Positions 25,790-59,427 of a stretch of 64,000 nucleotides of DNA are shown in pieces. The position numbers and the translations under genes were made by a program. The first letter of the stretch is position 1. Every line of letters begins with the position of its first letter. The notes beneath the pieces are model-generated. The model was given only the letters and a program-made list of their open reading frames with translations, had not been told where the DNA came from and made no database searches. Location of the stretch: the NCBI GenBank assembly GCA_004431415.1, contig QPMI01000104.1, positions 1 through 64,000 of the forward strand. The letters are read 5' to 3'. The stretch is from Cyanophora paradoxa CCMP329. Lineage: Eukaryota > Plantae > Glaucophyta.

Positions 25790-25830
25790 AAAAATTAAAA
25801 ACCAAAAGGTCCAATACAGATTGAGGGACC
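25790..25830. other. Putative end-to-end junction (attP-like) between tandem units
   Basis: AAAACCAAAAGG|TCCAATACAGATTGAGGGACC here, versus AAAACCAAAAGG|GTGGACTG at 59427. Confidence 0.6.
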
Positions 25831-26053
25831 GTCGAATACCCCGTTAAACAAAAAGTCGGCCCCGCACAAACGCGTCGCAGGGGCTCGGGAGGGCCCGGAG
25901 AGCGCGAATAAATTGCTAGTGCGGATCCCGGACCTCGTTTCAAAACGAACCCTAGGTCCCCGGAGAGGGGTCCAAGGGTCCCCAAAATCTGTACCCCTGG
26001 CCCCGCAGACGCCGGTGCACGCAGTACTCGGAGAGGCCGTTCAATACACGTCC

Positions 26054-26491
26054 CTAAGAAGATCCGATAGCCTGAAAGGGGCGCTTCCGCGGGGCGGGGG
26101 GCGGACGGACGCTCGCCTTGGCCCAGGCGGACTTGATGGCGAGCTCGGACGCGCTGCTGGCGAGCGCCGCGCACGCCAGCTCGAGCCGCCGGGCGTCGAG
26201 GTAATCGGCGAGGATCGCGAGCTCGGCGAGGAAGACGAGAGCCGAGGCGGCGGCCCGCGGGTCGGGGTAGGCCCCGGGGGCGAGGGCGGCCGCCGCGGGC
26301 GAGGGGTGCGAGAGGGCGACGCCGGCCGCCGACACGAGCGAGGAGCGGAAGGGGAGCGGGACGGGGGCCACGTCGGCGTCGGAGCAGCTCGAGGCGAGGG
26401 AGAGGATGCGGGCGTCGGCGGCGAGCGCCGCGGGGCACGGGATATGGACGCCGTCGGAGCAGAGAAGGATCATCGGTGTCATAGCTGTCAT
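26054..26491 (-). CDS. Skp1/Elongin-C-like BTB/POZ protein
   Basis: ILLCSDG..., PVPLP and LAELAILADYLDARRLELACAALA correspond to Skp1 LQSSDG, PVPLPNV and [25 protein letters not shown]. Confidence 0.75.
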   Translation of the reverse strand: MTAMTPMILLCSDGVHIPCPAALAADARILSLASSCSDADVAPVPLPFRSSLVSAAGVALSHPSPAAAALAPGAYPDPRAAASALVFLAELAILADYLDARRLELACAALASSASELAIKSAWAKASVRPPPAPRKRPFQAIGSS

Positions 26492-26723
26492 CCGACGAAG
26501 ACGAGCTCGAGGAGGAGCGAGATCGGAGGCATTTCTGGGAGAGTTCGGCCACGTCCGCTCCAGACGGCCCTCCGCCTCCCGCGCCGCCGCGTTCGGATCT
26601 GAGCCTCGCGGCGTCGCAGGGCGCCCGGCGCCGTCCCCGAAGCCCGAGCCGGCGGGGGCGCACCGATCTCATCGCCGCGGGCGGCGGTGACGAGTCGCCG
26701 ACGCCGCGCGTTGCCGAGCGCCT

Positions 26724-26950
26724 TGGTGGAAGACCTGGCCGAATATTAGCAAAGGCGGGGGTGGGGGTGGGGGTGACGAAGCCGGGCCGGCGTACGTGGT
26801 CAATGCGGGGCGGGGCGCGGCGGCCGCCGCCGCGACGCAGGCGGGCGACGAGGGCGGGGCGCCCCTAGGTGGCAAACCTGGCCGAATTTCAGAGGGGGTA
26901 AGGTGTAGGTGGGGGACGAAGCCGGGCGGGCGTACGTGATCAACGTCGCG
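26724..26950 (+). repeat. Diverged direct repeat pair (~85 bp, period ~144) between the divergent Skp1-like and recombinase genes
   Basis: GGTGG..ACCTGGCCGAAT...GACGAAGCCGGGC.GGCGTACGTG.TCAA occurs at ~26724 and ~26868. Confidence 0.7.
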
Positions 26951-27177
26951 GGATGGCGGCCTCGGCTCGTGGGGATACGATTCGGCCTCGTCCGCTCCCG
27001 TCGGCCTTCCGCCCCGCGCGCGGCCTGTGCGCAGGGACTAAAGATAACATCGGCGACGCGAGCGCGAGGATTAAAGGTGCGAGGTAACCCATAAATAGAT
27101 CCCACCCCGCACGTCGAATCCCAACACCTCGCCCCTCCCACTCCGGGTCGCCCGCCCGCACGGCCCGGCCGGCGACC

Positions 27178-30100
27178 ATGTACTTCCAGACGGTCCACGA
27201 CGCGTACGAGCTGATCGAGTTCGACGGGCCGTGGGGGCGGACGCAGCTCGTGGTGCTAAAGTCCGACGCCGGGCCCTCCGTCTGCTCTGCCGAGCTCGCG
27301 CGCGTCCTGGGCGAGCCGCCGTTGGCCGAGGGCGAGGGCGAGGACGAGGTGCAGGACGTGCTCACCGCGCGCTATGGCGTCCCAGCGCGGCCCGTGCCGA
27401 GCGAGCACGCGATCCTCCTCCTGGAGACCCTCGGGGCCGTCCGGCGCGGCGAGTACACGCCCGAGGACCCGCCGCGCCTCTTGTCGATGAGGTACGTGCT
27501 CGAGGTCGTCGACCAGGCGTGGCGGGACAGCGACGAGGCCCGGAAGCGCGCCGCTGCCACCGCGTTCTATGCCGCCAACGAGCGCCGCCGCCTGTGCGCC
27601 CTCTCCCGCTACGACCTGTACGTCGTGCGCGTCGGCGGCGAGCGGCTCTACGCCCTGCCGGCGACCCGGATCGAGGCTCCGGACCTGAAGCTCTGGGTCC
27701 CCATGGCGTCGCTCTCCGAGCTCCTCTACGGCTCCTCGCGCGCCACGAACTCGCTCCGCCGGGAGATCGAGCGCCGCCTCCCGGAACTCGCGTCGGGCGG
27801 CCCGCACCGCTGGAACGTTACGACGCTCAGCGTCGGGCGCGAGCGCTTCGGCATGCTCACGAGGACGCTCACCTACTACGCCGGCATCGGCGCCGAGGTC
27901 GACGGGGAGCGAACGCGGAGCTCGGCGCGCCGCTGGGCGTTCCTCAGCGCCGTCGCCGTCGAAAGCCTCCTGAAGGATCTCCCCGGCCGGGATCCGAACC
28001 TCCACCTCGACTTTCGCCGCCAGCGGCTCGTGCTAGAGGGCGCCGACCCCGCCACCGTCGCCGCCGCGGCCCCCGCGCCGGCGCCTGCGGGACCCAGGGT
28101 CGGTATCTTTGGCGCGCGCGAGTGGCTCGCCGACACGCACGTCGCCAACGTGATGAGCCTCTTGCTCCACCGCGCCAAGAACGCGCGCGTGCGGGCCCTG
28201 TACCCCATGCCGGTGGAGATTCTGACGAGCCTCCTTCGGCGCTACGCTGCGGCGGGCGAGGAGCGGCGTCAGCGCAAGGCCCTGGGGTTCGTGGCGCGGG
28301 GGGGTACCCTCTTCTGCCCGGTCTCGACGTCGATCGCGCGGCGCGGGGCGGAGCGGACGTGGAACAGCGGCGGGCACTGGACGCTGCTCGTGCTCTCCGG
28401 CGCCGCGAGGTCCGACGGCGCCGCGCCCCGCGCCCCCGCGCCCGAGCCCGCGTCCTCTGCGCCACTCGCGATCGCGCCGCCCCCGCAGGACGACGCGGTA
28501 CTGGGACAGCCTCGGCGCGCCCTGCGACGCCAGGTTGCTCTACGCCGCCCAGGCGGCCTTTCCCGCGCACGCGTACCGCGAGGAGACGGCCGGTGGGCGC
28601 CTCCAGGGGGACGGGTTCCAGTGCGGCATCTGTGCGGGGCCCGGTTCGATTCCGCGGGGGTAACGGGATCAAACTCATGCCGCGCGCACCGCGCAGGGGT
28701 CCTCTGGATCGCGGACGTGGGGATCGTCGAGGCGACGACGGGCTTTCCGTGGTCGGACGAGCTCGAGCAGGGCTCCATCCACTTCTTCCGCCCCGGGGCC
28801 CTATGGCGGATCAGATCGCAAAGGACAACGGGAAATTCATCGCCGAGAAGCGGCTGGCGTACCGGCGGATGCTGGAGAGCATGGACCACGGCGGGGCGAC
28901 GCTCTTTGACGTGGACGCCCTCGTGGACCCGAGCGCGTGGTGCTCGGCGCCGCCGGGGACCCTGTACCCCCAAGCGCGCCCGCGCCCGCCGGCGCCCGCC
29001 CCGCCGAGCCGGACGAGTCCGAGTCGGACTCGGGCGGCGCCGATCCCGAGGGGTCCGCCGAGGCGGGGCCTCGCCGCCCCGCCGCCCGTACCCCCGGCCG
29101 ACGAGCACGGCGAGGAGGAGGACGAAGGCCCGCGGGCGACGAGCCGGCAGAGCGGGGCGCCCCGTACGGCCTGCGCGAGGAGGATCAGTCGCGCGAGCTC
29201 AAGGCGCAGCTCGCCGCGTACGAAGAGTTTCGCACCCGCCTCCTCAACCCCGACCGCCCCGGCGCCGCCGTCGAGCGCTCCACGACGCTGGCGAACGAGC
29301 GGACGACGCTCCTCCGGTTCCTGGGGTACTGCGCCCTCCGCGAGAAGATCGACGGCGCTCTCACGCTCGACCTCTTCTCCGGCGCCCGCGTCGACTTTAT
29401 CGACCTGTGGATGCGGTTCCTCGCGTTTCTCCGCGACGAGCGCAGGGTCCGGGCGGGCACCTTGGCGGGGTACACGCAGGCGGCCCTCCAGGCCCACTCC
29501 TTTGTCCACGCGCGGACGGCCGGCGCCGCCGCCGGCTCCGAGGGCCCCCACGGGCGCCCGCTGCGGAACCTGATCGCGCAGCTGAGAAAGGAGAAGCGCG
29601 AAGGCGTGAAATGGCGTCAGCGCGGACCGAACTGGGTGCCGTTCGAGGCGCTCCTCTCGGCGCGGCTGGACGCGCTGGAGGCGGCGGAGCGGGCGCCGCT
29701 CGAGTACGAGAGGGCGCTCGCCCTCCGCGAGGGCGTCCTCCTCTCCCTCCTCGTCTCCACGCCCTCGCGCGTCGGCATCGTCCGCCGCCTCAGGTGCCGT
29801 ACCCCCCGCGCCGCGCCGTCGCCCCGCGCCGAGCGAGGGCCCCGTCCCGCCCCTCTGCGCCCCCCGCAGGATCGGCCACACGCTGCGGCGGGACGGCGGC
29901 GCGTGGACAATCACGCTCACCCAGATGCGGGCGGACGCGGGGCAGGGCGAGGCCGTCCTCTCGTCGAAGACCGCGAAAACTGCGGGGGCGATCAGCTACC
30001 CGATCCCGGAGTTTGTGCAGCGGCCGCTCACCTCGTACGTCGAGCGGTACCGGCGCCTCCTCCTCCCGCCGCTGCCGGGGGGCGCGGACGAGGGCTGGCT

Positions 30101-31625
30101 CTTCACGAGCGCCTCGGGAGCGCCCCTCTCCGACTCGGCCTGGAGCGTCTTTGTCAAGCGCGTGACGGAAAAGTGGACGGGGGTACCGGTGACGGCGCAG
30201 GCGATGCGGGCCATCATCACGACGCACGTGCGCGACGAGGCCGCGGCGAACCGCATCTCCGGCGACACCGCGGCCGCCGTCGTCGACGGGACGGGTACGC
30301 CGAAGCGCCCCCCCCCCCCCCCCCCCCCCCCGCCTCTCTCACCCGCCCGCGCGCCCGCAGCCAAGCTCCTGGGCCACTCGGTGCTGACGGCGACGCAAAA
30401 TTACGACTACTCGGCGCGGGCGCGCACGGCGGCGGCGGCGGTGGCGTACCTCGAGGAGCTCGCCGTCAAGCACGACGAGGCGCGGCTCCGGGCCCGCGAG
30501 AGCGCCGCCTCCGCCGAGTCGCCGCCCCGCCTCGAACTCCCGCCGGCACCGGCGCTGCCGCCGCCGCCGCCGCCGCCATCCGGATCCCCCGCGCCCTCGG
30601 CGGCGGGCGGGAGCTCGGGCGGCGGGACCGAGGCGGAGCGGGACGACGGCGGGGACTCCGAGGAGGACGCCGACGACGAGCCGGCGCCGTTGCCCGCGCC
30701 GCCGTCCGCCCCGGCGCGTCCCCGCGCGGGGCGCGGCGCGGAGAGCTCCAGCTCGTACTCGGAGGACGACGGCGAGGGCGGGAGCGGCACGTCGAACGGG
30801 AGCGAAGAGGCCAAGCGGCGGCGGACGGGGGCGGAGAGGCCGCGCGCCTGGGACGCCGACTACACCCTCGAGCGCGAGCTCGCCATCGCCGAGCAGAGGT
30901 ACTGCGCGCCCTGCGATCGGGTGAGCCGCCCGCCCCCGCCCCGCCCCGCGCCGCCCCCCGCGCGCCGCCGCCCTGACGCACCGCAAGGAGTTTAAGACCT
31001 CGGCCGGGGCGCGGGCCCACGAGCACTACTGCTCCCGCGGCCTCCTCCGCGGCGGGCGCGGCCGGCGCGGCCTCGGCCGCGCGCGCGGGCGCGGAGGCGC
31101 CGCCTCCCAGGAGCCCATCCCCGTCGGCGTCGCCGCCGCCGGCCCGCGCCGCCCCTCTACCACCTGCACTGGCGGTCGGCCTCGCCGTACCCGGCGGGGC
31201 AGGTGGTGGCGGCGCTGGCGACGCACGCGGCGAGCCCGCTCCCCGGCGTGTGGTTCGCGCGCCTCGTCCAGACGATCGACCTGCCGAGCGGCGAGTACGA
31301 GTCGCGCTTCGTGGTGCTGAAGCGCTTCGGCGGCGCGTGGGCGCCGAGCCAGGAGGGCGGACCGCGCGAGTGGAGCTTTCCTTCGTCACTTTATCCCGTC
31401 GAGTATGAGGGACGGAACGGCACGGTCGAGATCCGGACCGGCCCGAGCGCATTCTGGGCTGCTGGGCCTCCCGGCGCCTGCCACACCGTCCTCGTCTCCG
31501 TCGTCGTCGCGCGGCGGCGGCGCTGGGCGCGGCGCCCAGCCTGCCCGGCGGCGCGGTCGCCCGCCAAAGATGCGTACCTGAGCGAAGGATCGGTATTGTC
31601 ACGGAGCGACGGGCAGTTGTCCTAG
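27178..31625 (+). CDS. Multidomain protein: N-terminal putative DNA-binding region, Ulp1/SENP (C48) protease, tyrosine recombinase, C2HC Zn finger, C-terminal beta-rich domain
   Basis: Introns at 28410-28488, 28632-28696, 29794-29869, 30295-30360 and 30921-30987. Continuity needs correction of apparent homopolymer frameshifts at ~28795-29140 and ~31140. Confidence 0.7.
28120..28880 (+). other. Ulp1/SENP-like cysteine protease domain
   Basis: WLADTHV (28123), GGHWTLL (His 28375), YWDSLG (Asp 28505) and LQGDGFQCGIWVL (Gln, Cys 28622) after splicing. Confidence 0.85.
29170..30420 (+). other. Tyrosine recombinase (core-binding + catalytic domain)
   Basis: RFLAFLRDERRVRAGTLAGY; LLVSTPSRVGIVRRLRIG (Arg 29768); SSKTAKTAG (Lys 29967); WLFTSASG; AQAMRAIITTH (Arg 30207); AKLLGHSVLTATQNYD (His 30375, Tyr 30402). 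Confidence 0.9.
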
Positions 31626-31819: not shown

Positions 31820-32972
31820 GCCGCACCCTAGACGGAATCGCCGCCGCTCCGTGACGGCCGAGGGGGTACGCGCGCGCCGCGGCCGCCCCGCCCTAGACGG
31901 AGGCGCCGCCGCTCCGTGACGGCCGAGGGGGTACGCGCGGCGCCGCGGCCGCCCCGCCCTAGACGGAGGCGCCGCCGCTCCGTGACGGCCGAGGGGGGTA
32001 CGCGCGGCGCCGCGGCCGCCCCGCCCTAGACGGAATCGCCGCCGCTCCGTGACGGCCGAGGGGGGGTACGGGCGGCGGAGGGCGGCGGTGGGCTCCGTCC
32101 TCTTTCCTTCGTACCCCGTGAAGTCGGTGGGCTCCTCCATCTGCGCGGGCGGGGATGAGAGTTGTACTCGTTATCTTTTCGGCTTTTAATATTTATCTTA
32201 GTGACAACTTCAGGGGTTTGGGTAGCACGAGGAGCTTACCGCGCCGCCGGGGGTACGAAGGAAAGAGACACGGGCCTACCCCCGCCGTCACGGAGCCGAG
32301 CCAGTTCCCTCTAGGGCGGCGCCGGCGGCGGGTGAAGAGCTCACCGCGCCGCGGGGGGAACGAAGGAAAGAGATGCGGGCCTACCCCCGCCGCCCGTCAC
32401 GGATCCGAGTCAGTTCCCTCTAGGGCGGCGCCGGCGTCGGGCGAGGAGCTTACCGCGCCGCCGGGGGTACGAAGGAAAGCGATGCGGGCCTACCCCCGCC
32501 GCCCGTCACGGAGCCGAGTCAGTTCCCTCTAGGGCGGCGCCGGCGTCGGGCGAGGGGCGTACCGCGCCGCGGGGGGTACGAAGGAAAGAGGTGCGGGCCT
32601 ACCCCCGCCGCCCGTCACGGAGCCGAGTCAGTTCCCTCTAGGGCGGCGCTGGCGGCGGGCGAAGGGCTTACCGCGCCGCCGGGGGTACGAAGGAAAGCGA
32701 TGCGGGCCTACCCCCGCCGCCCATCACGGAGCCGAGTCGGTTCCCTCTAGGGCGGCGCCGGCGGCGGGCGAAGGGCTTACCGCGCCGCCGGGGGTACGAA
32801 GGAAAGCGATGCGGGCCTACCCCCGCCGCCCGTCACGGAGCCGCGTCAGTTCCCTCTAGGGCGGCGCCGGCGTCGGCCGCGGCGCTCATAGCCTACGCGG
32901 GGTACGAACGAAGGAGGCCCTGAGGGGTGCACCTACCCCCGCCGCCCGTCACGGAGCCGCGTCGGTTCCCTC
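31820..32972 (+). repeat. Repeat region hr5: 4x A, node, 7x B
   Basis: Same monomers; node GGCTTTTAATATTTATCTTAG at ~32181-32201. Confidence 0.93.
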
Positions 32973-33695
32973 TAACGCGACACCGGCGCTGAGGAACGGG
33001 CGCACCTATCGTAACGAAGGCGACAGCTCGCGAACGCGACTCCGGATCCGCTTAGGTTGGCCGCGCGCCCGTCCGGCGTTGGTCCACGCCGCCTATCACG
33101 GAGCTCGGGCCGTGTCGGTAGAACGCGCACGTAGCCTCCGGGCGCTCGATCGAGGCCGCGGCCGCCGGGCCTCGAGCTCGTCCGCGCCGGCCGCGAACGA
33201 CCCAGGCCTGCGCGATGTAAGCTATCAAGGCGCTCGACCTCGCTGCGCGGCGCGATGGCACGGCGCACCATTCCTCCGCCATCTATCGTCCGGAAGCTGT
33301 TGCGGCCGGAGGCGAAGGTTACAAGTACCTCGGGCGCGCGCCACATCCGCCGGCACGAAGCCGAGGCGATCCGAGCCGCCGAGGTCTCCGATCCGCGGCT
33401 CTCTCACGCCAACCGCCGCATCTGCGTCGCGCTGGGGCGCTGCAACGATACGTTCCGGTCTCATGCCGATTTGGCCCGCTGGACGCTCGCTGTGCGAGCG
33501 CAAGGCCCGCAACGAGCGCTAGACAGCGACGCGCCTCGCAGCTCGCCTCAAAGCTCGCCCCGGCTCGCTCCCATGAGCAGCGGATTTGGGGTACGCATTT
33601 ACGAATCACAGACGTCGACGAGCTTAAAATTTGCATCACGGCGTGGCTACAGCTATAGCGCTGCGTTTTCTAGCTGTACGGAGCCTACGAACGCG

Positions 33696-34172
33696 TCAAC
33701 TACGGCTCGCGCCGCGGCCGACCGCGTAAACACAGAAGATCGAATTCGGTGCTCCGGGTACCTCCTGGCGCGTGACGCCCACGCGGCGCCGCAGGTGCGC
33801 GATGCGCGGATCCGCGAGGATCTTTGCGGAGAGCTCGTCCGCCTCGGCCCGCGCGAAGCGGGCGACGACGGTCTCAATCCCCGCGAGCAGGGCGAGGACG
33901 GCGCTCTCGGAGGCGGGGAGTTCGGTCGCTGATCCCCAAGAGGCGGGCTCCTGAGCTCCGGGCGGGGTGATGCGGACGAGCCAGTGGCCGCGCGGCTCCG
34001 GCAGTACGACGACGTGTGCGCGCACGAGGAGGCTGGCGACGGCGGGCTCGACGACCTCGGCGACGCGCTTGAGCAGGGTCGGAGTCCGGAGCGCGAGGGC
34101 GATCGGTCGACCGGCGACGAGGGCGCTGGAGATGCGACGGGCGGCGTTTTGAACGACGGTAGAGGCCTCCAT
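33696..34172 (-). CDS. 158-aa hypothetical protein, paralogue family A
   Basis: 13/60 gapless identities to 20719-20937. Confidence 0.6.
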   Translation of the reverse strand: MEASTVVQNAARRISSALVAGRPIALALRTPTLLKRVAEVVEPAVASLLVRAHVVVLPEPRGHWLVRITPPGAQEPASWGSATELPASESAVLALLAGIETVVARFARAEADELSAKILADPRIAHLRRRVGVTRQEVPGAPNSIFCVYAVGRGASRS

Positions 34173-34509
34173 GATCGTCGAGGTCGATGGCAAATGTGCG
34201 TCCAGGGACCGTCTGCTCCGCCTTTAAGCACGCCGTCAGTTGAATTCGAGCGAAAGCGCCTTCCCCGCCCCACGCGTCCAGCGTATCGTTTGAATCCGCA
34301 AATCACGTATATTCGAGAACAGCGCGCGCAGTCGGCTCGCGATCCGCGAGCGACGGCGGGAGTTGGGCGGGCGGGCCGGGGTATCGAGGGTACGGGGCGG
34401 AAGAGGCGTCGTAGAGGGCATGTGGAAGCGAACGAGGGCACGTGACTGCGGGAAAGGCTGAACGTGAAGGGTGTAGAGGCGGTGCACGGCCGAGGAAGGA
34501 GACCGGCCG

Positions 34510-36375
34510 CGCCCTACACCGAATCGCCGCCGCTCCGTGACGGCCGAGGGGGTACGGGCGGCGCCGCGTCCGCCCCGCCCTAGACGGAATCGCCGCCGCT
34601 CCGTGACGGCCGAGGGGGGTACGGGCGGCGCCGCGGCCGCCCCGCCCTAGACGGAATCGCCGCCGCTCCGTGACGGCCGAGGGGGTACGGGCGGCGCCGC
34701 GGCCGCCCCGCCCTAGACGGAATCGCCGCCGCTCCGTGACGGCCGAGGGGGGTACGGGCGGCGGAGGGCGGCGGTGGGCTCTGTCTTCTTTCCTTCGTAC
34801 CCCGCGAAGTCGGTGGGCTCCTCCATCTGCGCGGGCGGGGATGAGAGTTGTACTCGTTATCTATTCGGCTTTTTATATATATCTTAGTGACAACTTAGGG
34901 GATATGGGTGACACGAGGAGCTTACCGCGCCGCCGGGGGTACGAAGGAGAGAGACACGGGCCTACCCCCGCCGTCACGGAGCCGAGTCAGTTCCCTCTAG
35001 CGCGGCGCCGGCGTCGGGCGAGGAGCTTACCGCGCCGCCGGGGTACGAAGGAGAGAGACACGGGCCTACCCCCGCCGCCCGTCACGGAGCCGAGTCAGTT
35101 CCCTCTAGCGCGGCGCCGGCGTCGGGCGAGGGGCTTACCGCGCCGCCGGGGGTACGAAGGAGAGAGACACGGGCCTACCCCCGCCGCCCGTCACGGAGCC
35201 GAGTCAGTTCCCTCTAGCGCGGCGCCGGCGTCGGGCGAGGAGCTTACCGCGCCGCCGGGGTACGAAGGAGAGAGACACGGGCCTACCCCCGCCGCCCGTC
35301 ACGGAGCCGAGTCAGTTCCCTCTAGCGCGGCGCCGGCGTCGGGCGAGGGGCTTACCGCGCCGCCGGGGGTACGAAGGAGAGAGACACGGGCCTACCCCCG
35401 CCGCCCGTCACGGAGCCGAGTCAGTTCCCTCTAGCGCGGCGCCGGCGTCGGGCGAGGGGCTTACCGCGCCGCCGGGGGTACGAAGGAGAGAGACACGGGC
35501 CTACCCCCGCCGCCCGTCACGGAGCCGAGTCAGTTCCCTCTAGCGCGGCGCCGGCGTCGGGCGAGGGGCTTACCGCGCCGCCGGGGTACGAAGGAAAGAG
35601 ATGCGGGCCTACCCCGCCGCCCGTCACGGAGCCGACTCAGTTTCCTCTAGAGGGCGCCGGCGTCGGGCGAGGGGCTCACCGCGCCGCCGGGGGTACGAAG
35701 GAAAGCGATGCGGGCCTACCCCCGCCGCCCGTCACGGAGCCGAGTCAGTTCCCTCTAGGGCGGCGCCGGCGTCGGGCGAGGGGCTTACCGCGCCGCCGGG
35801 GGTACGAAGGAAAGAGATGCGGGCCTACCCCCGCCGCCCGTCACGGAGCCGAGTCAGTTCCCTCTAGGGGGGCGCCGGCGTCGGGCGAGGGGCTCACCGC
35901 GCCGCCGGGGGTACGAAGGAAAGAGATGAGGGCCTACCCCGCCGCCCGTCACGGAGCCGAGTCAGTTCCCTCTAGCGCGGCGCCGGCGGGGGCGAAGAGC
36001 TCACCGCGCCGCCGGGGAACGAAGGAAACAGACACGGGCCTACCCCCGCCGCCCGTCACGGAGCCGAGTCAGTTCCCTCTAGGGGGCGCCGGCGGCGGCG
36101 AGGGGCTCACCTCGCGCCGCCGGGGGTGCAAAGGAAAGAGATGTCGGACCGGCCGCGCCCTAGACGGAATCGCCGCCGCTCCGTGACGGCCGAGGGGGTA
36201 CGGCGGCGCCGCGGCCGCCCCGCCCTAGACGAACGCGCCGCCGCTCCGTGACGGCCGCCGGGGGGGGGGGGGGGGGGGGGGGGGGTGAGGGACGAGTGGC
36301 GGAGGGCGGCGATGGGCGGTTTTCATCGTACTCCGCGAGCTCAATTATAACCTCCATCTGCGCGGGCGGGGATGA
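34510..36375 (+). repeat. hr1, second copy
   Basis: Duplicate of 752-2630. Confidence 0.93.
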
Positions 36376-40100: not shown

Positions 40101-41062
40101 TCCGCCGCGAGATCATCAAGTCCATCATGAAGTTCGAGCACGAGAAGGCGCTCCTTAAGGAGAACGAGAAGCGGCAGGGGCGGGAACTCTCCCCGACGAA
40201 CAAGCATCTCTTCCGCGAGGAGTGCTTCGCCGACGTGAACCTCGACGAGCTCGCGTCGGACGAAATGTCGGGGGGCTTCACGTACCAGGTCTTCGAGGAG
40301 ATTTTCGGGGAAAAACTCAGAAGCATCAGGTCCGTCGCCGGGGCCCATCGCGTGCCCCGTTCTTTCTTGATCAGGACGACAGGAAAAGGGACATCGACTA
40401 CGAGAGCGTGAAACAGGCCGTCCGCCGAGGGGAGTTAAAGGAGCCGCCGGACGGCCGGTCCATCGCGCAGTGCGAAGCATTTCGCAGGGGCAAGCGCGCA
40501 GGGAGGCCTTCCGAGGACGCGGCGGAGGCCGCGGCGCCTGCGTCGGCACCCGCGTCGCCCGCAGCATCGGCGGCGACCGCGTCGGCGCCCGCGTCGCCCG
40601 CAGCATCGGCGGCGACCGCATCGGCGCCCGCAGCATCGGCGGCGACCGCGGGCGCCCGGCAACGGCCCCGCGGAAGCCTAGAGGTCGCCAAAGCTTCGCT
40701 CCCGCGAAGAAAGCACCTCGTATCCGGGGGCGCGCGCGCGGAGCCGCACGCGGCCGAGGCAGGGGCGCCCGCCAAGCCCCCGTACCGGTCGCCACGCCCG
40801 TGGACTCTCCGAAAGGTGCGCAGTGCCGACCCGTGCCTCGCGCCCCGACCTTAATCCTCGTGCAGAAGATGGAGCAACGCCGCCCGATCCCTCGCCCTCC
40901 AGCAGCCGCAAGCGCAAGGCCGACGAGGCCGACGTCGACGAGGCCGACGAGGATGCGCCCGCGGTTCGGGACCCGCCCTCCAGTCCATTTCGTGCTCAAA
41001 TCACACTCCTCCCGCCAGGAACCAAGCGGGACGATCGGCAACAATTCGAGGATATGATGTAG
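37114..41062 (+). CDS. AAA+ ATPase, second copy (a few apparent 1-bp deletions)
   Basis: Duplicate of 3365-7314. Confidence 0.82.
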
Positions 41063-43474: not shown

Positions 43475-43584
43475 GGCCGTGGGGCCGTGCACGTGCCGGG
43501 AGGGGCCGGCACATATATAAGGAGACGGCCGGGGCGTGCCGTGAAGGTCCGGGCCCGGACGTCGACGGTACCCGGCCCTCGGAC

Positions 43585-49500: not shown

Positions 49501-49514
49501 CGATGCAGATCTAG
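43585..49514 (+). pseudogene. Primase-UL9 helicase, second copy, fragmented by dozens of 1-bp deletions (probably sequencing error rather than true decay)
   Basis: Duplicate of 9859-15831, 43 bp shorter. Deletions fall mostly in G/C runs, with essentially no substitutions seen. Confidence 0.8.
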
Positions 49515-49765: not shown

Positions 49766-51110
49766 CGGAAGCGCCGCCGCTCCGTGACGGCCGAGGGGGT
49801 ACGGGCGGCGCCGCGTCCGGCCCGCACTAGACGGAATCGACGCCGCTCCGTGACGGCCGAGGGGGTACGCGCGGCGCCGCGGCCGCCCCGCCCTAGACGG
49901 AGGCGCCGCCGCTCCGTGACGGCCGAGAGGGGTACGCGCGGCGCCGCGGCCGCCCCGCCCTAGACGAACACGCCGCGGCTCCATGACGGCCGAGGGGGGT
50001 ACGGGCGGCGCCGCAGCCGCCCCGCCCTAGACGAACACGCCGCGGCTCCGTGACGGCCGAGGGGGTACGGGCGGCGCGCGGCCGCCCCGCCCTAGACGAA
50101 CGCGCCGCGGCTCCGTGACGGCCGAGGGGGTACGGGCGGCGCCGCGGCCGCCCGCCCTAGACGGAGGCGCCGCCGCTCCGTGACGGCCGAGGGGGTACGG
50201 GCGGCGCCGCGGCCGCCCCGCCCTAGACGGAGGCGCCGCGGCTCCGTGACGGCCGAGGGGGTACGGGTGGCGGAGGGCGGCGGTGGGCTCCGTCCTCTTT
50301 CCTTCGTACCCTCGAGCTCGGTGGGCTCCTCCATCTGCGCGGCGGGGATGAGAGTTGTACTCGTCATCTATTTGGCTTTATATATATATATATATATATC
50401 TTAGTGGCAACTTGAGGGGTTTGGGTAACACGAGGAGCTTACCGCGCCGCCGGGGGTACGAAGGAAAGAGATGCGGGCCTACCCCGCCGCCCGTCACGGA
50501 GCCGAGTCAGTTCCCTCTAGGGCGGCGCGGGCGTTGGGCGAGGGCGTACCGCGCTGCGGGGGTACGAAGGAAAGAGACACAGGCCTACCCCCCGCCCGTC
50601 ACGGAGCCGAGTCAGTTCCCTCTGGGCGGCGCCGGAGTCGGGCGAGGGGCGTACTGCGCCGCGGGGGTACGAAGGAAGGAGATGCTGGTGGAGGGAGAGC
50701 CCTAGACGGAGGCGCCGCCGCTCCGTGACGGCCGAGGGGGTACGGGCGGCGCCGCGGCCGCCCCGCCCTAGACGGAGGCGCCGCCGCTCCGTGACGGCCG
50801 AGGGGGTACGGGTGGCGGAGGGCGGCGGTGGGCTCCGTCCTCTCTCCTTCGTACCCTCGAGCTCGGTGGGCTCCTCCATCTGCGCGGGCGGGGATGAGAG
50901 TTGTACTCGTCATCTCGCGATCGTGACAACCACAAGGTATTGAGGCGACATGAAGAAGCTTACCGTTCCTCGGGGTACAAAGGAACGAGACACGGGCCTA
51001 CCCCGCCGCGCACTGTCACGGACCCGCGTCAGTTTTCTCTAGGGCGGCGCATGCGTTGGGCGAGGAGCTCACCTCCTGCGCGGGGTACGGTACGCACGGG
51101 GTACGAATCG
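49766..51110 (+). repeat. hr2, second copy
   Basis: Duplicate of 16086-17450. Confidence 0.92.
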
Positions 51111-52087
51111 CAGCCGCCGCCGATGTGCCCCGGAGGGATGATCCTTTGGTCGTGCGAGGGCGCCGTCTGCGATGCCTGCGGGGCGCGCGGTGAAGCGGCG
51201 ATCGACGCCGGATCGCCATCGAAGCGCGGGCAACGGGACGAACCTCGGCGCGGCTCAAAGATGTTCTGCGCACCGCGGCCGACGCGACGGCGCTCTCCGA
51301 GAACGCGCTGGACGATGCGCGCCGCCTGCTGGCCGACCGCAAGCTCTGGAGCGGGCGCTCGTGCGAGATGGCCGCGCGCGGTCGCCGTCGACGCGTACGT
51401 CGCCCTTGGGTGCCCGCGGTAGGCTGGCATCACGACCTGCGAGGGCGACGCGGCAAGCTCGTGAGGTTTGTGCGGCGATCCAGCGCGGACGGGCGGTGCT
51501 CACGTACCGCGGCCGGCGGACTATGTTGAGTCGATCAGAGAGCGGGCGGGTGCCAAAGGCGGAGGGCGGCGGGCTCAGGAGAGGCACGAGAGCTCGGGAA
51601 GGAGCCCCGCCGTCGTCGCCGCCGCCGCGGTCGCCGCGGGGCCGACATCCCTTTCGGCATCGCCGCGGGCGCGGCCGGCGTCTCGCCTCGGGCCATGAAT
51701 GCGCGAAACAGCTCGAACGTGGCGCACGAGGAACACCCGCGCACTCGAGGGTGCACGTTCCGCCGCTTCGAGCCCTCGTACTTGGGCGCCGAGGCGATTG
51801 AGCGGAAAGGACAGCCTTCGACGCCCTAAGGGAATGCGCTTTGGTTGATTTCGAGGCACAGAGCGCCTCGGATCGCCGCACGAAGCGCGTTCGGGGGTAC
51901 CCCGGTACGCGTCCTACTTTAGCGCGCCGTGCTTGCACACCGAGGAGCCCACGGTCCCTCCCGCGAGGCGAGCAAACGCGGATCAGGTGCTCGAGTTGAT
52001 CGCGAGGTACGTGCAGCATCAGATCGCTCTACCATGCGTGCGAGCCCGTGGACGGGCCGAGCTCGATCCCCGGCCTAGCTGACGCCC

Positions 52088-52473
52088 CTACGGTCTGCCC
52101 CTCGCAGGAGAGCCCTCGCTTTCGCTATCCGAGAGATCCGGGTTGACGTGCACCGCGATCGGCGCGCCCGGCGCCGAGTACTCGGTCGCCAGCTTGCGCA
52201 TCGCCTCGAGGCGCTTCGCCTGGCCGCCCGACTTGCCCTTGAGCGTCGTCTCGAAGCCTTGCGCGACGCTGCGGTTGGAAAAGGGCGCCGCAACTGCCAC
52301 GAGGCGCCAGGGCCCTTTGCCTTTGGTGTACGATCCGCGGATCGTGCCGCGCGTGTGCTCCTTGTACCGCCGCGTCAGGTTCGCCGTCTCGCCGGTGTAC
52401 CACGTGCGGCCGTTGTGCAGGAGGTACGCCACGTGCTGTCCCTCGAAGCTCGCGTGGAACGGCCGCGCCTTAC

Positions 52474-52507
<34 letters not shown>

Positions 52508-52605
52508 AGGTCCCTTGGTCGCCTCGTCTTCGGGTCCGAGTTTGCGGCCGCGCCCGCCGCGATGTGGGCGTCCTCTTTGGCCTTGGTAGGTGCCTCGGAA
52601 TCCAT
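52088..52605 (-). CDS. GIY-YIG endonuclease, second copy
   Basis: Duplicate of 18432-18950; catalytic part intact. Confidence 0.85.
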
Positions 52606-52884
52606 CGCTACCGAGCCCGCGCCCCGGTCCTCTTTACACGTCTGATCCCGTGCCGCAGGCGGCTCGGCCGGAGGTAGCGCGCGCCTCGCCCGCTTCGAGA
52701 AGCTCGCGGCGGGCGGCAGCACGAGGGCACGGGTCTGAGCGCCCCGGCGGGCGGCGGCGGCGGGTACGATGAAAGCGGCGCCGGCGTGGGGGGCGCCGGT
52801 CTTCGTCCATCCACACCCCGCGGGGACGAGTCGCGGCTTCTCTTTATGGGGATAGAGGGATGCGGGCCGCATCGCCCCAAGGTA

Positions 52885-54040
52885 AGCCCCTCGCCCGACG
52901 CCGGCGCCGCCATAGAGGGAACTGACTCGGCTCCGTGACGGGCGGCGGGGATAGGTGCACCTCGTTCCTTCGTACCCCCCGCGGCACGGTACGCCCCTCG
53001 CCCGTCGCCGGCGCCGCCCTAGAGGGAACTGACTCGGCTCCGTGACGGGCGGCGGGGGTAGGCCCTCATCTCTTTCCTTCGTACCCCCGGCGGCGCGGTG
53101 AGCCCCTCGCCCGACGCCGGCGCCGCCCTAGAGGGAACTGACTCGGCTCCGTGACGGGCGGCGGGGGTAGGCCCTCATCTCTTTCCTTCGTACCCCCGCG
53201 GCGCGGTGAGCCCCTCGCCCGACTCCGGCGCCGCGCTAGAGGGAACTGACTCGGCTCCGTGACGGGCGGCAGGGATAGGCCCTCATCTCTTTCCTTCGTA
53301 CCCCGGCGGCGCGGTGAGCCCCTCGCCCGACTCCGGCGCCGCGCTAGAGGGAACTGACTCGGCTCCGTGACGGGCGGCAGGGGTAGGCTCGCGTCTCTTT
53401 CCTTCGTACCCCGGCGGCGCGGTAAGCCCCTCGTGCTGCCCAAATCCCCTGAAGTTGTCACTAAGATATATATATAAAGCCAATTAGATGACGAGTACAA
53501 CTCTCATCCCCGCCCGCGCAGATGGAGGAGCCCACCGAGCTAGAGGGGTACGAAGGAAAGAGGACAGAGCCCACCGCCGCCCTCCGCCACCCGTACCCCC
53601 TCCGCCGTCACGGAGCCGCGGCGCGTTCGTCTAGGGCGGGGCGGCCGCGGCGCCGCCCGTACCCCCCTCGGCCGTCACGGAGCCGCGGCGTGTTCGTCTA
53701 GGGCGGGGCGGCCGCGGCGCCGCCCGTACCCCCCTCGGCCGTCACGGAGCCGCGGCGCGTTCGTCTAGGGCGGGGCGGCCGCGGCGCCGCCCGTACCCCC
53801 TCGGCCGTCACGGAGCCGCGGCGTGTTCGTCTAGGGCGGGGCGGCTGCGGCGCCGCCCGTACCCCCCTCGGCCGTCATGGAGCCGCGGCGTGTTCGTCTA
53901 GGGCGGGGCGGCCGCGGCGCTGCCCGTACCCCCTCGGCCGTCATGGAGCCGCGGCGTGTTCGTCTAGGGCGGGCGGCCGCGGCGCTGCCTGTACCCCCTC
54001 GGCCGTCACGGAGCGGCGGCGATTCCGTCTAGGGCGGGCG
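52885..54040 (-). repeat. hr3, second copy
   Basis: Duplicate of 19230-20400. Confidence 0.92.
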
Positions 54041-54357
54041 GCAGGGGTACGCCTCTCGCGGCGCGCGTCTTCCTCACCTGCTTCGATGAGACCTGCCCGC
54101 ACATTGTAAGCGCGCCTTCGCGGCCACCTTTCAGTCACTTACACTCGCTTTACATGCAGCGGAAGCGGGGTACACTCGCTTCGAGTGCAACGGCGGGCGC
54201 GGGGGACTTTCGCGCGCGCGGCGGCGCCATAGAAACCCGGTTCGGGCGGTGCGTGCCCCCGCACGACGCCACCCGGATCCGCGCTCACCCCCACTCGTGC
54301 AGTCGGCCCCTCCGCCGGGCGCGCGGTCTCGGTTTCCAATCAACACACGCCTCCTAT

Positions 54358-54788: not shown

Positions 54789-55455
54789 GGCCGTCACGGA
54801 GCGGCGGCGCGTTCGTCTAGGGCGGGGCGGCCGTGGCGCCGTCCGTACCCCCCTCGGCCGTCACGGAGCGGCGGCGATTCTCCCTAGGACGCGGCCGGTC
54901 CTCTCCCTCCACCAGCATCTCTTTCCTTCGTACCCCCGCGGCGCGGTACACGCCCCTCGCCCGACGCCGGCGCCCCCTAGAGGGAACTGACTCGGCTCCG
55001 TGACGGGCGGCAGGGGTAGGCCCGCATCGCTTTCCTTCGTACCCCCGGCGGCGCGGTAAGCTCTTCGCCCGCCGCCGGCGCCGCGCTAGAGGGAACTGAC
55101 TCGGCTCCGTGACGGGCGGCGGGGTAGGCCCGTGTCTGTTTCCTTCGTACCCCCGGCGGCGCGGTGAGCTCTTCGCCCCCGCCGGCGCCGCGCTAGAGGG
55201 AACTGACTCGGCTCCGTGACGGGCGGCGGGGGTAGGCCCGTGTCTCTTTCCTTCGTACCCCCGCGGCGCGGTACGCCCTCGCCCGACGCCGGCGCCGCCC
55301 TAGAGGGAACTGACTCGGCTCCGTGACGGGCGGCGGGGGTAGGCCCGCATCGCTTTCCTTCGTACCCCGGCGGCGCGAGGTAAGTCCCTCGCCCGCCGCC
55401 GGCGCCGCCCTAGAGGGAACTGACTTGGCTCCGTGACGGGCGGCGGGGGTAGGCG
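54789..55455 (-). repeat. hr4, second copy
   Basis: Duplicate of 21151-21825. Confidence 0.92.
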
Positions 55456-55585: not shown

Positions 55586-57512
55586 ATGGGTACGGGAGCT
55601 AAGGGTAAGGAGCGGGCCGAGCCCGCCGCGGGGTCCGCCGGCGCCGCCCCGCCGCTGGATACGCGCGGCGCGCGGGTCTCGCGGCCCAAGTACATCTCGG
55701 CGTGGCTCGAACTCGACCTACGCCCACAATGCTCCGTCTGCCGCTCGCAGCGGCTCCACCCTCCGGCCTACGTCCCGGCGTGCCTCGCGGCGAGCATCGT
55801 CGAGCTCGCCGGCGGCGGCGACCTCGACCGCGCGATCGACCTCAACGACGAGCGGGCGGGCCGCCTCATCGGACACCACGGCCTCGCGTGCCTCGCCTGC
55901 GTCCCCAAGGTACCGGTACCCCCGCCTTACCCCCCCTGACCGCCCCGCTCACCCCGTCGCCGCGCGCGCAGGCCCTTCGCTGCGCCGACGCCGCCGGAGA
56001 CGCCGAGGGCGAGGTCGAGTGCCCCATGGCGCAGGGGGCGTGCCGCGAGCCGCACCCGACGCTCGCCGCCCTCGTCCCCTCGTCGCGCGTCGACGGCTAC
56101 CTCGCCTACCGCGCCTTTGTCCACGAGGCCGAGCGCCCCGAGTCCTGGGCCGGCGCGGCGAGCGTCTCCCAGGCCGCCCAGCACGCCGTCTACCTCGCGA
56201 ACCGCCCGTCGGCGGCGCGCCCGTCGGCCCCGGAGGCGCGCCCCGCCCTCGCCCTCTGCGACGGCGCGGGGCCTCGTCCTCCTCGGCGCCGGCGCCCGCT
56301 GAGATTCCCAGGGCGGCTCCGGCCCCCCGGAGCCCACCCCCGCCGCGGCGGCCTCTGCGGAATCGGATCCGGAGCCGCCGCGCCGCCCGCCGCGGCGCGT
56401 CGCCCCCGCCGCGCGGCCTCCGCCGCCGCCGAGCGCGAGCAAGAGGACGAGCTCGAGGACGGAGACGCCAGCAAGGGCGCCGCCGCCGCGGGCCCGGGCC
56501 CCTCGCCAAGCGGGCGCGGCGGCAGCCGGCCGAGCGGCGGCCGCCGTGGGAGAGCGAGAAGCTCGCCAAGCTCCTCTACCAGGCGTACACGTGCAGGCTC
56601 TCCGAGTACGACGACGACGACGACGCCGACGCCGGCTCCGAGGAGGGCGCGCCCGGCGCGCAGGGCGAGGCGGACCCGATGGAGACGTGGGAGGAGGAGC
56701 GGCGGGCGGCGTTCGAGGGGGCGATGGAGGAGCTCTCCTCCTCGTCCGACTCGGGCTCGGAGCGGGGCGGGGGCGACGAGGGGCCGGGGAGGAGGGTGCG
56801 CCCGGCCAGGAGGAGGACGAGGGCGCGGCGGCCCTCGCCGAGCTCGAGCGCGGCCTCCGGCGGGGGTACGCCCTCCATCTCGACCCCTCCCCCGGCCTCA
56901 CCTGATGCCCGCCCCGCCCGCAGGTCGACGCGGCCCTGGTGGGGATCCAGCTCGACGCCGACGCCGGCGCCCGGCGGGCCCTCTACGCCGCGCGCAGCAC
57001 GCGGGTCGCGAGCGGATCCGGTGCCTCCTCCTCGTCAGCTCCGGCATCCTCGGCGCGTTCGAGCGCTTCCGGGAGGCCAACGGGCGGAACCCGAGGAGCT
57101 GGGGCCTCTTCCGCAAGGACAGCGTGGAGCCAAAGTACTCGCCGATCCTCGAGGCGTGCGGCCTGCGCCTCGAGGACCGGGCGGCGTGCGCCAAGGTCTA
57201 CGCCGACCTCTGCTCCTGCGCACGCGTCCTGCAGCGGCTCCCCGGCCTTGCGCGCGTCGTCGGCGACGGCGTCAGCCCGCACGACTTTATCGCCTACCTC
57301 CCGCTCCTCCAGCGGGCCCCCGCCGAGGCCGTCGCCGCGCTCGAGCAGCGGCTCCAGGAGCGCGTCGCCTCGTACAAGGGCGAGAACGGGGAGGCGCTGG
57401 TTCGGATGCCGGCGGCGGTGTTTCGGCTCAAGGCGGACGGCGCGAGCTCGAGCTCGGATGGCGGCGGCGGCGGGTCGACGTCGGCCCCGACGATCACGCC
57501 GAGGCCGCGTGA
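55586..57512 (+). CDS. RING-like protein, second copy (apparent frameshifts)
   Basis: Duplicate of 21956-23890. Confidence 0.6.
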
Positions 57513-57695
57513 GCTGCATCCTCGATTCGTGTATCCGTGCGCTCGAGCCTGGTTTCGTCTGAATACAAGATAGTGAAATTGCTGCTTTCGCTCGAATCCG
57601 CGAGGGATTCTGCGCGGGCGGGACCCCGCAGGGAAGGCCCGGACCACCATTCCTCTTTCTCTAAATCTCCTCGCGATCGTTGAATTCCAGCCACC

Positions 57696-58163
57696 ATGGA
57701 CGCCAACGTGTACACCGACGCGAGCCCGCCGTCGCGCGCGACGCCCCTCGCCGATCGCGATGCAGTCGCGACGCCGACGAGCTCGAGCACGGACCCCGCC
57801 GTCGAGATCAAGCCCACGTCCGAGACGCGCCCCTCTGCCAAGCTCTGGACGCCCGAGGACATTACGGCGTGCGGCCTCCCCAGCGATCCGGAGCTCGACG
57901 CCCTCGTGTGCGACGCGCTGAACAGCTTTACCTACGAAGTCTACGCGGCGGAATGCATCAAGGCCGGCTTCAAGCCCCGCGCCCCCTCCGCCTCGTCGGC
58001 CCGCCGAAGCGCTTCGCCGACGAGTTCTAATTATATTATTAAACCTATAGCTAGGCATGTACATTCCCATGTACCCCCTCTTCGGTCTCGCGGGATGCAC
58101 AAATACATCCGGAAAATCGTTTGTTCGCGAGATGAGCGCAGCGACATCTCGCTGGGCCTCTGA
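57696..58163 (+). CDS. Hypothetical protein, second copy
   Basis: Translation identical to 24074-24541. Confidence 0.5.
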   Translation: MDANVYTDASPPSRATPLADRDAVATPTSSSTDPAVEIKPTSETRPSAKLWTPEDITACGLPSDPELDALVCDALNSFTYEVYAAECIKAGFKPRAPSASSARRSASPTSSNYIIKPIARHVHSHVPPLRSRGMHKYIRKIVCSRDERSDISLGL

Positions 58164-58288
58164 GTACCCCGTGAACCCCCGGCCCTAATTCTAGGCCTAG
58201 GCCTCCGGATCCCCCACGAGGGCCGCACCCTAGACGCCCACGCGATCGACTCTCGCAGGCCGCTCGCGCGCGGGACAATTGGACCCAG

Positions 58289-59131
58289 ATGGCGCGCACG
58301 AAACACGCGCAAGGGTCTAAGAAGGGGACCGGACACAAGGCCCCGCGCAAGCGCTTCGCCTCTCTGAAGTCGTCGTCCAAGAGCGCGAGAAAGAACGCTC
58401 CCGCGGCCGGTGGGGTGAAGAAACCTCATCGCTATCGCCCGGTACACGTTTCTTAATAGTAAGCTTAAACTTGAAAGCTTAAGCTTACTCATTGAGTTGG
58501 TGAATCGGCGACTATGATTTCGAAATTCAGGGCACGGTGGCTCTCAGGGAAATTCGCAAGTGGCAAAAGGTACGTTATATATAATCATTCAATTTCCTTA
58601 CTATGGTATAGATATTGATATACTAACGTGTACATATAACGCAGTCGACGCAGCCTATCATCGCGCTCGGTCCGTTTCTGCGACTCGTCAAGGAGATCAC
58701 GGACGATCAACTCAAGGAACGGCGCAACACGGGCGAGTCCAACGTCCCGTTTGGGATCCGCTGGTCAAAGGACTCGATTCTCGCCCTGCGTGAGGCCGCC
58801 GAGGCGTAAGTCTCATGATCATACTAAATTCCCACATCTAATTAACGTAATCATATGCATCCCACCCCGGCCCCGCGCGCGCAGGCACGCGATCGAGACC
58901 TTTGAGGACGGCAATTTGATGGCCATTCATGCAAAGCGGTGCGCCCAAATAATCATCATTGATACCCTAATTAATATTATAAGTTGAATGTCCCGCGATC
59001 GCGTGCCCGATGCCCGACCTGACGCGCTAGACGCGCGCCTACGCCGCAGCGTGACGATCCAGCCCAAAGATATACAGCTCCGGAGGCGCATCCGTCGCGA
59101 GGACAAGGTCGAGGCGGTGGCGTCGGGGTGA
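58289..59131 (+). CDS. H3: Histone H3 variant, second copy (intact)
   Basis: Same length and exon structure as 24671-25513 (offset 33618). Confidence 0.95.
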
Positions 59132-59427
59132 TCATGAGCCCCGGCCCTTGACCCCCAAAACCTCCCAATCCCCGGCCCGCTTGAAAATGAATTCTACGGG
59201 TGGGGCACTCCCGTACGTGATGCTCGAGGCGGGGGGAGGGTCTGGGACGGGGTACGGGAGACCGACCCCTCCCATGTATGGGCGGGACCGAGGGCTCGAA
59301 AACCGAAATATTGGAAACGCAGGGCACCGAGTGCGAATATCGTGTCCTAGTATCATAGAAACACAAACCCCGAGCGAGGTGCCGAGCCAAGGTGCATCAA
59401 AGAAACTAAAAATTAAAAACCAAAAGG

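Follow-up and report, generated by a model that had tools for sequence, protein, structure and literature searches.

Structure of the repeated unit

The DNA analysed here is a stretch of 64,000 nt of Cyanophora paradoxa CCMP329 (contig QPMI01000104.1, positions 1 to 64,000), hereafter called the window. It contains a 33.6-kb unit arranged in tandem, which encodes a likely tyrosine recombinase (YR) and a putative primase-helicase and is proposed to be an integrated mobile element. By blastn, positions 1–25809 were aligned with positions 33760–59427 with 99.376% identity over 25,819 columns, and the alignment stopped exactly at 25809 and 59427. In the alignment of the junctions, the two copies were identical through ...CCAAAAGG, beyond which the sequences are unrelated. 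Both places read ...AAAACCAAAAGG; this is followed at the first place by the start of the next unit, TCCAATACAG..., and at the second by unrelated DNA, GTGGACTGAAATC.... The right junction with the flank reads ...AAAAGG/GTGGACTGA, where the slash marks the boundary. One unit thus covers 33,618 bp and lies head-to-tail behind a preceding copy of at least 25.8 kb. An earlier annotation made from the sequence alone (the original prediction) had placed a tandem head-to-tail unit at 25810–59427, and these coordinates were borne out by both alignments. The unit tandem and its exact right end are real.

25810–59427, no strand: full element unit, 33,618 bp, defined by the blastn ends at 25809/59427 and the junction alignment
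1–25809, no strand: preceding partial copy (copy A), equal to 33760–59427, cleaner and used as the basis of the gene models
59428–59454, no strand: start of the flank, two 9-nt arms forming a perfect inverted repeat (GTGGACTGA / TCAGTCCAC) around a 9-nt spacer, as a possible target feature

The inverted repeat of 9+9 nt in the host flank sits directly at the element boundary, and none is present at the unit-unit junction. Terminal inverted repeats (TIRs) were not found when the first 1.5 kb of the unit was compared with the last 1.5 kb by blastn-short, which gave chance matches of at most 17 nt. Flank and unit share no sequence.

The read depth of the unit relative to the flank, a comparison put forward in the original prediction, was obtained from short-read run X1. 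Word depth was 203.7–269.4 in the element contigs vs 70.3 and 66.3 in two flank contigs, a ratio that corresponds to about 3–4 copies of the unit. An X1 unitig terminates exactly at 59427. Gene models of further near-identical copies were found on two other contigs of the same assembly.

Sequence errors in the full copy

The two copies differ by 16 substitutions and 153 gap events, 143 of which are single-base indels. Nearly all of these indels are a G or C missing from homopolymer runs of positions 33760–59427 (copy B). The X1 contigs carry the extra base, as copy A does, at nine of nine listed indel sites (47039–47914), and they are identical to the window across two flank contigs. Since the short reads side with copy A at these nine sites, the about 140 one-base homopolymer deletions of the full copy (33760–59427) are long-read assembly errors. 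The pattern looks like that of a tandem repeat left unpolished in a long-read assembly, and public gene models at the locus are broken as a result.

In copy B, the replication gene falls into more than ten pieces, which were bridged by false introns in a splice-aware gene finder and evidently also in the original prediction. The introns of the primase-helicase gene are artefacts, because one-base deletions break its frame in the full copy. The same program chained neighbouring genes, and models were retained only where copy A, the paralogues or RNA joints supported them. Frame-specific G+C content gave no clear coding signal. A Pfam search with the stop-to-stop open reading frames (ORFs) of the full copy gave only the RING and GIY-YIG genes, a result that was misleading before the frameshifts and the true introns had been recognised. 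The locus illustrates how, within the tandem repeats of a long-read assembly, homopolymer errors can be mistaken for introns.

The probable recombinase gene and its paralogues

27178–31625, + strand: recombinase gene, about 1,280 aa, present once in the window, with a few frameshift errors, aligned with gene models P0014 and P0015
about 28090–28900, + strand, within the recombinase gene: Ulp1/C48 protease domain with GGHW..YWDSLG..LQGDGFQCG
about 29151–30560, + strand, within the recombinase gene: likely tyrosine recombinase domain with RRLRIG, SKTAK, MRAIITTH and LLGHS..YDY

The predicted protein consists of a conserved N-terminal region, the Ulp1 domain, an acidic linker, the recombinase, a C2H2 finger and a conserved C-terminal domain, in this order. 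Six gene models in the same genome share this domain order, four of them being near-identical copies and two being diverged paralogues, P0014 (51%) and P0015 (49%). Comparison with the paralogues indicated at least two introns in the gene. With two paralogues of about 50% identity and the same architecture, the sequences argue for a family within the genome and not a one-off. The C-terminus of P0015 (about residues 1400–1495) is a fused GIY-YIG domain, which shares 47% identity (E=6e-21) with the separate GIY-YIG protein of the element; the nuclease therefore belongs to the core of the family.

A family profile built from the recombinase protein and its paralogues matched ChlaDub2 (E=4.2e-8) and also XopD and ChlaDub1. 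All 14 of the 14 PDB matches of the Ulp1 profile were Ulp1-like proteins, which we take to be members of clan CE, and the alignment spans the His, Asp, Gln and Cys motifs.

The central part of the protein is likely a tyrosine recombinase, as judged from sequence signals that are weak singly but unanimous. The Pfam family Phage_integrase was matched below threshold in three of the six gene models (E about 0.02, positions 18–168 of 172). Sub-threshold matches were also obtained with integrase families of PHROGs (E=3.7e-4 and 1.2e-3; 0.0019 with the bare exon) and with XerC of NCBIfam (E=0.0031 with P0011, in its catalytic part, and 3.8e-4 with P0014, in its N-terminal core-binding part). ESM Atlas placed the domain at 0.96 to a Phage_integrase cluster, with neighbours that include Preplasmiviricota clusters. 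AlphaFold2 modelling of the YR exon reached a pLDDT of 42.7 alone and of 50.6 with an alignment of three sequences. With this poor model (pLDDT 50.6), Cre, XerA, the Tn1549 integrase and XerD made up 15 of the 17 first listed rows in Foldseek, the best E being 0.0096 (0.0096–0.02 for Cre/XerA), which is a hint only. The residues R, K, R, H and Y, which we take to be catalytic, occur in the expected order and are invariant across three lineages. Sequence searches of PDB with the YR exon, the Ulp1 exon and a YR-only profile gave nothing meaningful, a k-mer search with the YR exon gave no relative, and no match to DUF3435 was found by Pfam in the recombinase gene models or ORFs.

No family match was obtained for the conserved C-terminal domain of the recombinase (31143–31570; HLHW.SASP...LP.VWFARLV...LPSGE.E.RFVVLKRFG), which may serve in targeting or in the reading of chromatin.

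The putative primase-helicase

43576–49511, + strand: putative primase-helicase, broken by 1-nt deletions in copy B, a single ORF in copy A

In copy A, the gene forms one uninterrupted frame of 2,140 codons from stop to stop (9409–15828), with the first plausible Met at about 9850. The corresponding gene model P0006 has 1,950 aa, and the public gene models of the copies carry the same frame damage. In the N-terminal third, the motifs YVDVDAD, GFRGAHVFH and HVDEG...GLRLPDARNPKS were recognised by eye, followed by AGCGAQKT and ILIADELN. The primase motifs stand in the order DxD / GxxGxH / RLPxxxNxK, and Walker A and B come after them. ESM Atlas placed the protein at 0.95 (213 of 256 features) to clusters with Herpes_ori_bp (83–90% of the members), ResIII and PriCT_2; the neighbour clusters belong to Nucleocytoviricota, Mucoromycota and Preplasmiviricota. 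The plasmid replication protein family CyRepA1 of NCBIfam matched the Walker A-B region with E=2e-5, below its cut-off.

No match was obtained in Pfam, PHROGs or PDB, the last being searched with the primase part and with the whole protein. A HMMER search with the central 1,121 residues against 1.84 billion representative proteins gave two matches, both being gene models of the element itself, and a word-based search of 5.8 billion proteins gave three, all of them own copies. A viral_contigs scan with the helicase part gave no relative. From the motifs and the ESM features it is plausible that this orphan protein of about 2,000 residues is a primase-helicase. Being that large, an orphan and open in the cleaner copy, it may represent a new lineage of replicative enzymes. 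The 16 substitutions in 25.8 kb together with the open frame of 2,140 codons point to recent activity or to selection.

Repeat arrays

31826–32988, + strand: repeat array 1, 67 nt x3.8 and 109 nt x7, each unit with CCGTSACGG
34506–36141, + strand: repeat array 2, 67 nt x3.9 and 109 nt x11.4
49766–50685, + strand: repeat array 3, 66 nt x7.7 and 105 nt x2.4
52881–54042, − strand: repeat array 4, 108 nt x5.1 and 67 nt x6.9, inverted relative to arrays 1–3
54915–55454, − strand: repeat array 5, 107 nt x5

The five composite arrays are built from units of 66–67 nt and 105–109 nt, three of them in one orientation and two in the opposite one. The palindrome CCGTSACGG occurs at 102 sites in the window vs 1.33 expected. 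All sites lie within the arrays, and no repeat unit is without the palindrome; the full unit accounts for 56 of the sites, whereas the flank has none. The arrays could be origins (iterons), enhancers or both.

Other genes, introns and transcription

33696–34172, − strand: ORF of 158 aa, no Pfam match
37406–40411, + strand: AAA ATPase gene with an acidic/helical N-terminal part, about 3656–6660 in copy A, at least five introns of about 47–61 nt
42333–43001, − strand: RING-finger protein, intronless, Pfam zf-RING_2 (PF13639) with E about 8e-7, 8592–9263 in copy A (223 aa)
51257–51888, − strand: spliced transcribed stretch with an intron at 51435–51505 (GTGAGC...CGCAG on the minus strand), from RNA contigs X18 and X19, 17598–18233 in copy A
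52088–52605, − strand: GIY-YIG nuclease, intronless, Pfam PF01541 with E=2.5e-8 and 4.9e-8, 18432–18950 in copy A (172 aa)
55586–57509, + strand: gene with a Cys/His-rich N-terminus, an acidic tract and a helical C-terminal domain, 21956–23887 in copy A, intron 55908–55969 by RNA contig
57696–58160, + strand: small ORF, 24074–24538 in copy A, RNA contig X17 unspliced over 56901–58087
58289–59131, + strand: histone H3 variant, 162 aa, exons 58289–58441, 58531–58569, 58645–58805, 58885–58938 and 59050–59131

The H3 variant gene has four GT-AG introns of 89, 75, 79 and 111 nt. Its exon 1 matched H3 tails in PDB with E=1.5e-9, and exon 3 matched the Cse4/CenH3 fold with E=0.0026. The tail contexts of K4, K27 and K36 are conserved on reading of the alignment, which suggests that the element may control its own chromatin. 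The AAA ATPase gene encodes GVLLFGPP/GTGKS, ILMC/DEVD, VIAATN and RRFRK, with introns (slashes) splitting Walker A (GPP/GTGKS) and Walker B (MC/DEVD). One of its exons weakly matched katanin, Vps4 and spastin (E=0.036–1), and all 24 of 24 matches were AAA ATPases. Immediately upstream of the RING gene, and on its strand, is a small Cys-rich ORF (CGRC...CPTC; 9332–9514 and 43074–43241, both minus strand) that could encode a zinc ribbon or could be a 5' exon belonging to that gene. The GIY-YIG gene is followed downstream by the transcript at 51257–51888, in which no convincing ORF was recognised; a 3' untranslated region and a non-coding RNA are both candidates.

Among the sequencing runs, 16 DNA runs hold 0.80–0.82 of the sampled words and four putative RNA runs 0.14–0.25. 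The RNA status of these four runs, X17–X19 among them, is a guess and not on record. The joint 55907/55970 in an RNA contig (X17) corresponds to the removal of a 62-nt GT...AG intron, the same intron having been predicted independently beforehand. The joint 51434/51506 (X18, X19) corresponds to a 71-nt intron whose ends are canonical only when the minus strand is read. Runs X17–X19 gave no cover over 44668–47335, which falls within the replication gene, or over the greater part of the H3 gene; this has no bearing on expression.

Most of the gene inventory of the original prediction was recovered. The RING, GIY-YIG, H3, AAA and Ulp1 genes or domains and the tandem layout were clearly identified, and the signals were weaker for the YR and for the primase-helicase. 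The latter had been called an archaeo-eukaryotic primase (AEP) with a UL9-like helicase, which agrees with the ESM features, the CyRepA1 match and the motifs seen by eye and is left without a match in Pfam, PHROGs and PDB. Five origin-like repeat regions had been announced; five arrays with the palindrome are indeed present, an origin role being one candidate beside enhancers. The claim of many genes with spliceosomal introns was inflated, the primase-helicase, RING and GIY-YIG genes being intronless in copy A. Introns are real in the H3 (four), AAA ATPase (at least five) and recombinase (at least two) genes and at the two RNA-contig joints.

Comparison with known mobile elements

Pfam was applied to 220 ORFs of at least 100 aa from the full copy and the flank, to 105 of the 298 ORFs of 40–99 aa from the same DNA (those with less than 55% R+P+A+G+S), and to 162 ORFs of the cleaner copy (29 composition-filtered ones of at least 70 aa and 133 of at least 85 aa). 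In this test, which addresses sequence families only, no capsid, penton or packaging ATPase family (major capsid protein, MCP; A32) was found in the scanned ORFs, nor any DNA polymerase, reverse transcriptase, HUH or DDE family. The sequences left unassigned are the N-terminal part of the AAA protein, the Cys-rich/acidic protein of 55586–57509, the N- and C-terminal domains of the recombinase protein and several small ORFs. The ORFs of the window contained no family of herpes-, mirus- or nucleocytoplasmic large DNA virus (NCLDV) type, and no virion or polymerase hallmark was recognised by Pfam within the 64 kb. Within the scope of this Pfam test, the statement of the original prediction that hallmarks of known elements are missing stands for capsid, reverse transcriptase, HUH and DUF3435. 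It does not stand for the pairing of Ulp1 with a YR and that of a YR with a primase-helicase, both of which are published patterns.

By analogy of architecture, the recombination module is Crypton-like. CryptonF-2_PS and some CryptonS elements of oomycetes are described as carrying a YR and a C48/Ulp1 peptidase, and Cryptons as lacking TIRs, having terminal direct repeats of 4–6 bp and passing through a proposed circular intermediate (Kojima & Jurka 2011, PMC3212892). The dismissal of Cryptons in the original prediction as small recombinase-only elements was too quick in view of these peptidase-bearing members. For active Chlamydomonas Cryptons, insertion at a short target resembling their terminus is described, as well as a rise in copy number despite excision (PMC9977147). 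The unit shares with Cryptons the pairing of a YR (a likely one in the unit) with an Ulp1-type peptidase, the lack of TIRs and the introns in its genes; a circular intermediate and short-target insertion, which are proposals for Cryptons, may by analogy apply to it. In contrast to Cryptons, the unit is not compact, with 33.6 kb and about ten genes, a putative primase-helicase among them. It also contains GIY-YIG nuclease, H3, AAA and RING genes and five large repeat arrays, and its peptidase and YR are fused in one protein. Kinship with Cryptons is judged here from the described architecture.

The combination of a YR and a primase-helicase in insertions of 15–30 kb is the pattern of Polinton-like viruses (PLVs), whose insertions are described as intron-less (PMC10120064). 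The unit resembles PLVs by its size class (14–40 kb), a likely YR for integration, a putative AEP/helicase for replication and multiple copies in protist genomes, as well as by a cysteine protease of the Ulp1/adenain kind and a GIY-YIG nuclease (PMC10120064; PMC12220804; bioRxiv 10.64898/2026.06.19.733378). It differs from them by the lack of a detectable MCP, penton or A32 ATPase, by its spliceosomal introns and by its chromatin cargo. A capsid module, with a double jelly-roll MCP, a penton protein and an A32-type packaging ATPase, is what defines PLVs, along with an integrase (YR or rve) and a replication protein (pPolB or primase/helicase). No TIRs are present, whereas about half of the high-quality PLV insertions have them. 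The putative helicase looks superfamily 2 (SF2)/UL9-like by ESM features, in contrast to the usual SF3 or SF1 fusions of PLVs.

Pipolins, casposons and archaeal pRN-type integrative plasmids combine an integrase with their own replication initiator (a primase or primase-polymerase with a helicase), have no capsid and exist in integrated and episomal states. The logic proposed for the unit is the same, but these elements are bacterial or archaeal, whereas the unit is eukaryotic and nuclear, with introns and a histone gene, and no sequence relationship to them was found. Starships are giant cargo transposons of fungi with a DUF3435 YR as captain at their 5' end. The unit resembles them as a large cargo carrier that would be mobilised by a YR, but it has no DUF3435 match, a non-fungal host, its own replication gene and a tandem arrangement. 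In the literature searched, no description was located of this element or of a capsid-less eukaryotic element with a YR and a primase-helicase.

Interpretation and alternative explanations

The unit is best explained as a giant, likely capsid-less, Crypton-like integrated mobile element with an acquired or retained replication module of plasmid or virus type and a cargo of chromatin/ubiquitin type, recently amplified (probability of about 0.5). In such an element, much as in the model put forward for Cryptons, the recombinase would excise the unit as a circle and insert it again at a short target through site-specific recombination. The primase-helicase would load at the repeat arrays, be they origins or enhancers, recruit host polymerases and copy the excised circle. 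The tandem could result from integration, either of a multimer or into a copy already resident, or could have arisen afterwards by unequal crossing-over. The H3 variant, the AAA ATPase, the RING protein and the Ulp1 parts may act on the chromatin of the element or on SUMO/ubiquitin control in the host, and the GIY-YIG nuclease may aid resolution or target nicking.

Several points weigh against this explanation. All YR signals lie below curated thresholds, and the three lineages carry Q, K or R instead of the second catalytic His of the R-K-H-R-H-Y set (about 30150–30200, MRAIITTH region), a substitution that we take to be nearer to the pattern of type IB topoisomerases. Walker A of the replication protein reads GAQKT and not GxGKT, which is atypical, and no sequence homologue backs the primase-helicase assignment. 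The diverged paralogues have no primase-helicase partner detected in the protein libraries, so that the replication gene may count as cargo and not as part of the core. The absence of a capsid is likely, as judged from the Pfam search for sequence families. The tandem could stem from unequal crossing-over alone, and the left end of the array lies beyond the window; the two other contigs with near-identical gene models may be alternative assemblies of the same array and not separate insertions. Neither an excised circle nor an empty site was seen.

An endogenised PLV or virophage-type element, with capsid genes that are too divergent to detect or that were lost, in which case packaging would depend on a helper virus as in a satellite, is an unlikely alternative. 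The size and the set of YR, primase-helicase, GIY-YIG nuclease and Ulp1-type cysteine protease match PLV insertions (PMC10120064; bioRxiv 10.64898/2026.06.19.733378), PLVs have been reported from C. paradoxa (PMC12220804), and the ESM neighbours of both helicase and YR include Preplasmiviricota clusters. Divergent capsids are also described as having escaped family searches before (PMC10120064). On the other hand, no MCP, penton or A32 ATPase family was detected in the scanned ORFs, and the two large unassigned proteins look by eye helical, acidic or Cys-rich and not beta-rich. TIRs are missing, several genes contain spliceosomal introns as opposed to the intron-less insertions of PLVs (PMC10120064), and the protease is fused to the recombinase, protease and YR being paired as in Cryptons (PMC3212892). 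The introns of the H3, AAA and recombinase genes, together with the spliced transcript, suggest a long residence in the nucleus. They would suit a host locus that is no longer mobile, namely an old, partly domesticated cluster derived from an element and amplified by segmental tandem duplication. A single flank junction is visible, tandem arrays can form without a recombinase, and the circular form is postulated and not in evidence. Such a locus is nevertheless improbable given that the copies are nearly identical, that very long ORFs are intact, that two other contigs carry gene models of additional copies and that two 50%-diverged paralogues indicate a proliferating family; moreover, the repeat boundary is base-exact and adjoins a palindrome.

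It is very improbable that the unit belongs, as a terminal or internal repeat, to a far larger herpes-, mirus- or giant-virus-like genome, integrated or concatemeric. Such a genome would fit the high G+C content, the dispersed arrays of homologous repeats, the helicase of UL9-like type, the genes for H3 and a RING protein and the repeat-repeat-unique layout, and H3 is among the core mirusvirus genes on the viral episome CE1 of a thraustochytrid host (bioRxiv 10.1101/2023.06.15.545109). However, no family of herpes, mirus or NCLDV type was found in any scanned ORF, and the unit alone occupies at least 59 kb. The 4.6-kb flank is devoid of Pfam-recognised genes and contains repeats at about 50–115 times single-copy depth and of single-copy contigs at a quarter of the element depth. 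The idea of a herpes- or mirusvirus terminal repeat was dropped for want of such families and since the thraustochytrid host used for comparison has 45% G+C and different repeats (bioRxiv 10.1101/2023.06.15.545109).

Within the explanation of a Crypton-like mobile element, a bolder version is advanced tentatively and is itself doubtful. The unit would be the first eukaryotic integrative plasmid, a capsid-less nuclear replicon with a Crypton-type Ulp1-YR protein, an orphan primase-helicase, iteron-like origins and chromatin of its own made with the H3 variant, shuttling between array and circle. If true, this would define a new class of mobile elements parallel to the integrative plasmids of bacteria and archaea. 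In the usual view, eukaryotic DNA transposons either leave replication wholly to the host (Cryptons, cut-and-paste elements) or are disguised viruses (Polintons, PLVs). A Crypton-type recombinase joined to a private primase-helicase, in an element that carries no capsid, would provide the missing eukaryotic intermediate of transposons, plasmids and viruses and offer a concrete case of how such modules are exchanged.

Flanking DNA

The G+C content is 61–76% in 2-kb bins up to about 58 kb and 53–56% thereafter. This contrast between unit and flank was not used as a sign of foreign origin, the host's own composition being unavailable as a reference. Rfam and tRNA scans of the window gave no matches. 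In the flank, the X1 word depths of positions 60009–62676 are about 3,000–7,700 vs about 66–70 in the adjacent single-copy contigs. These high-depth segments, which have no Pfam, Rfam or tRNA match, are dispersed host repeats present in about 50–115 copies.

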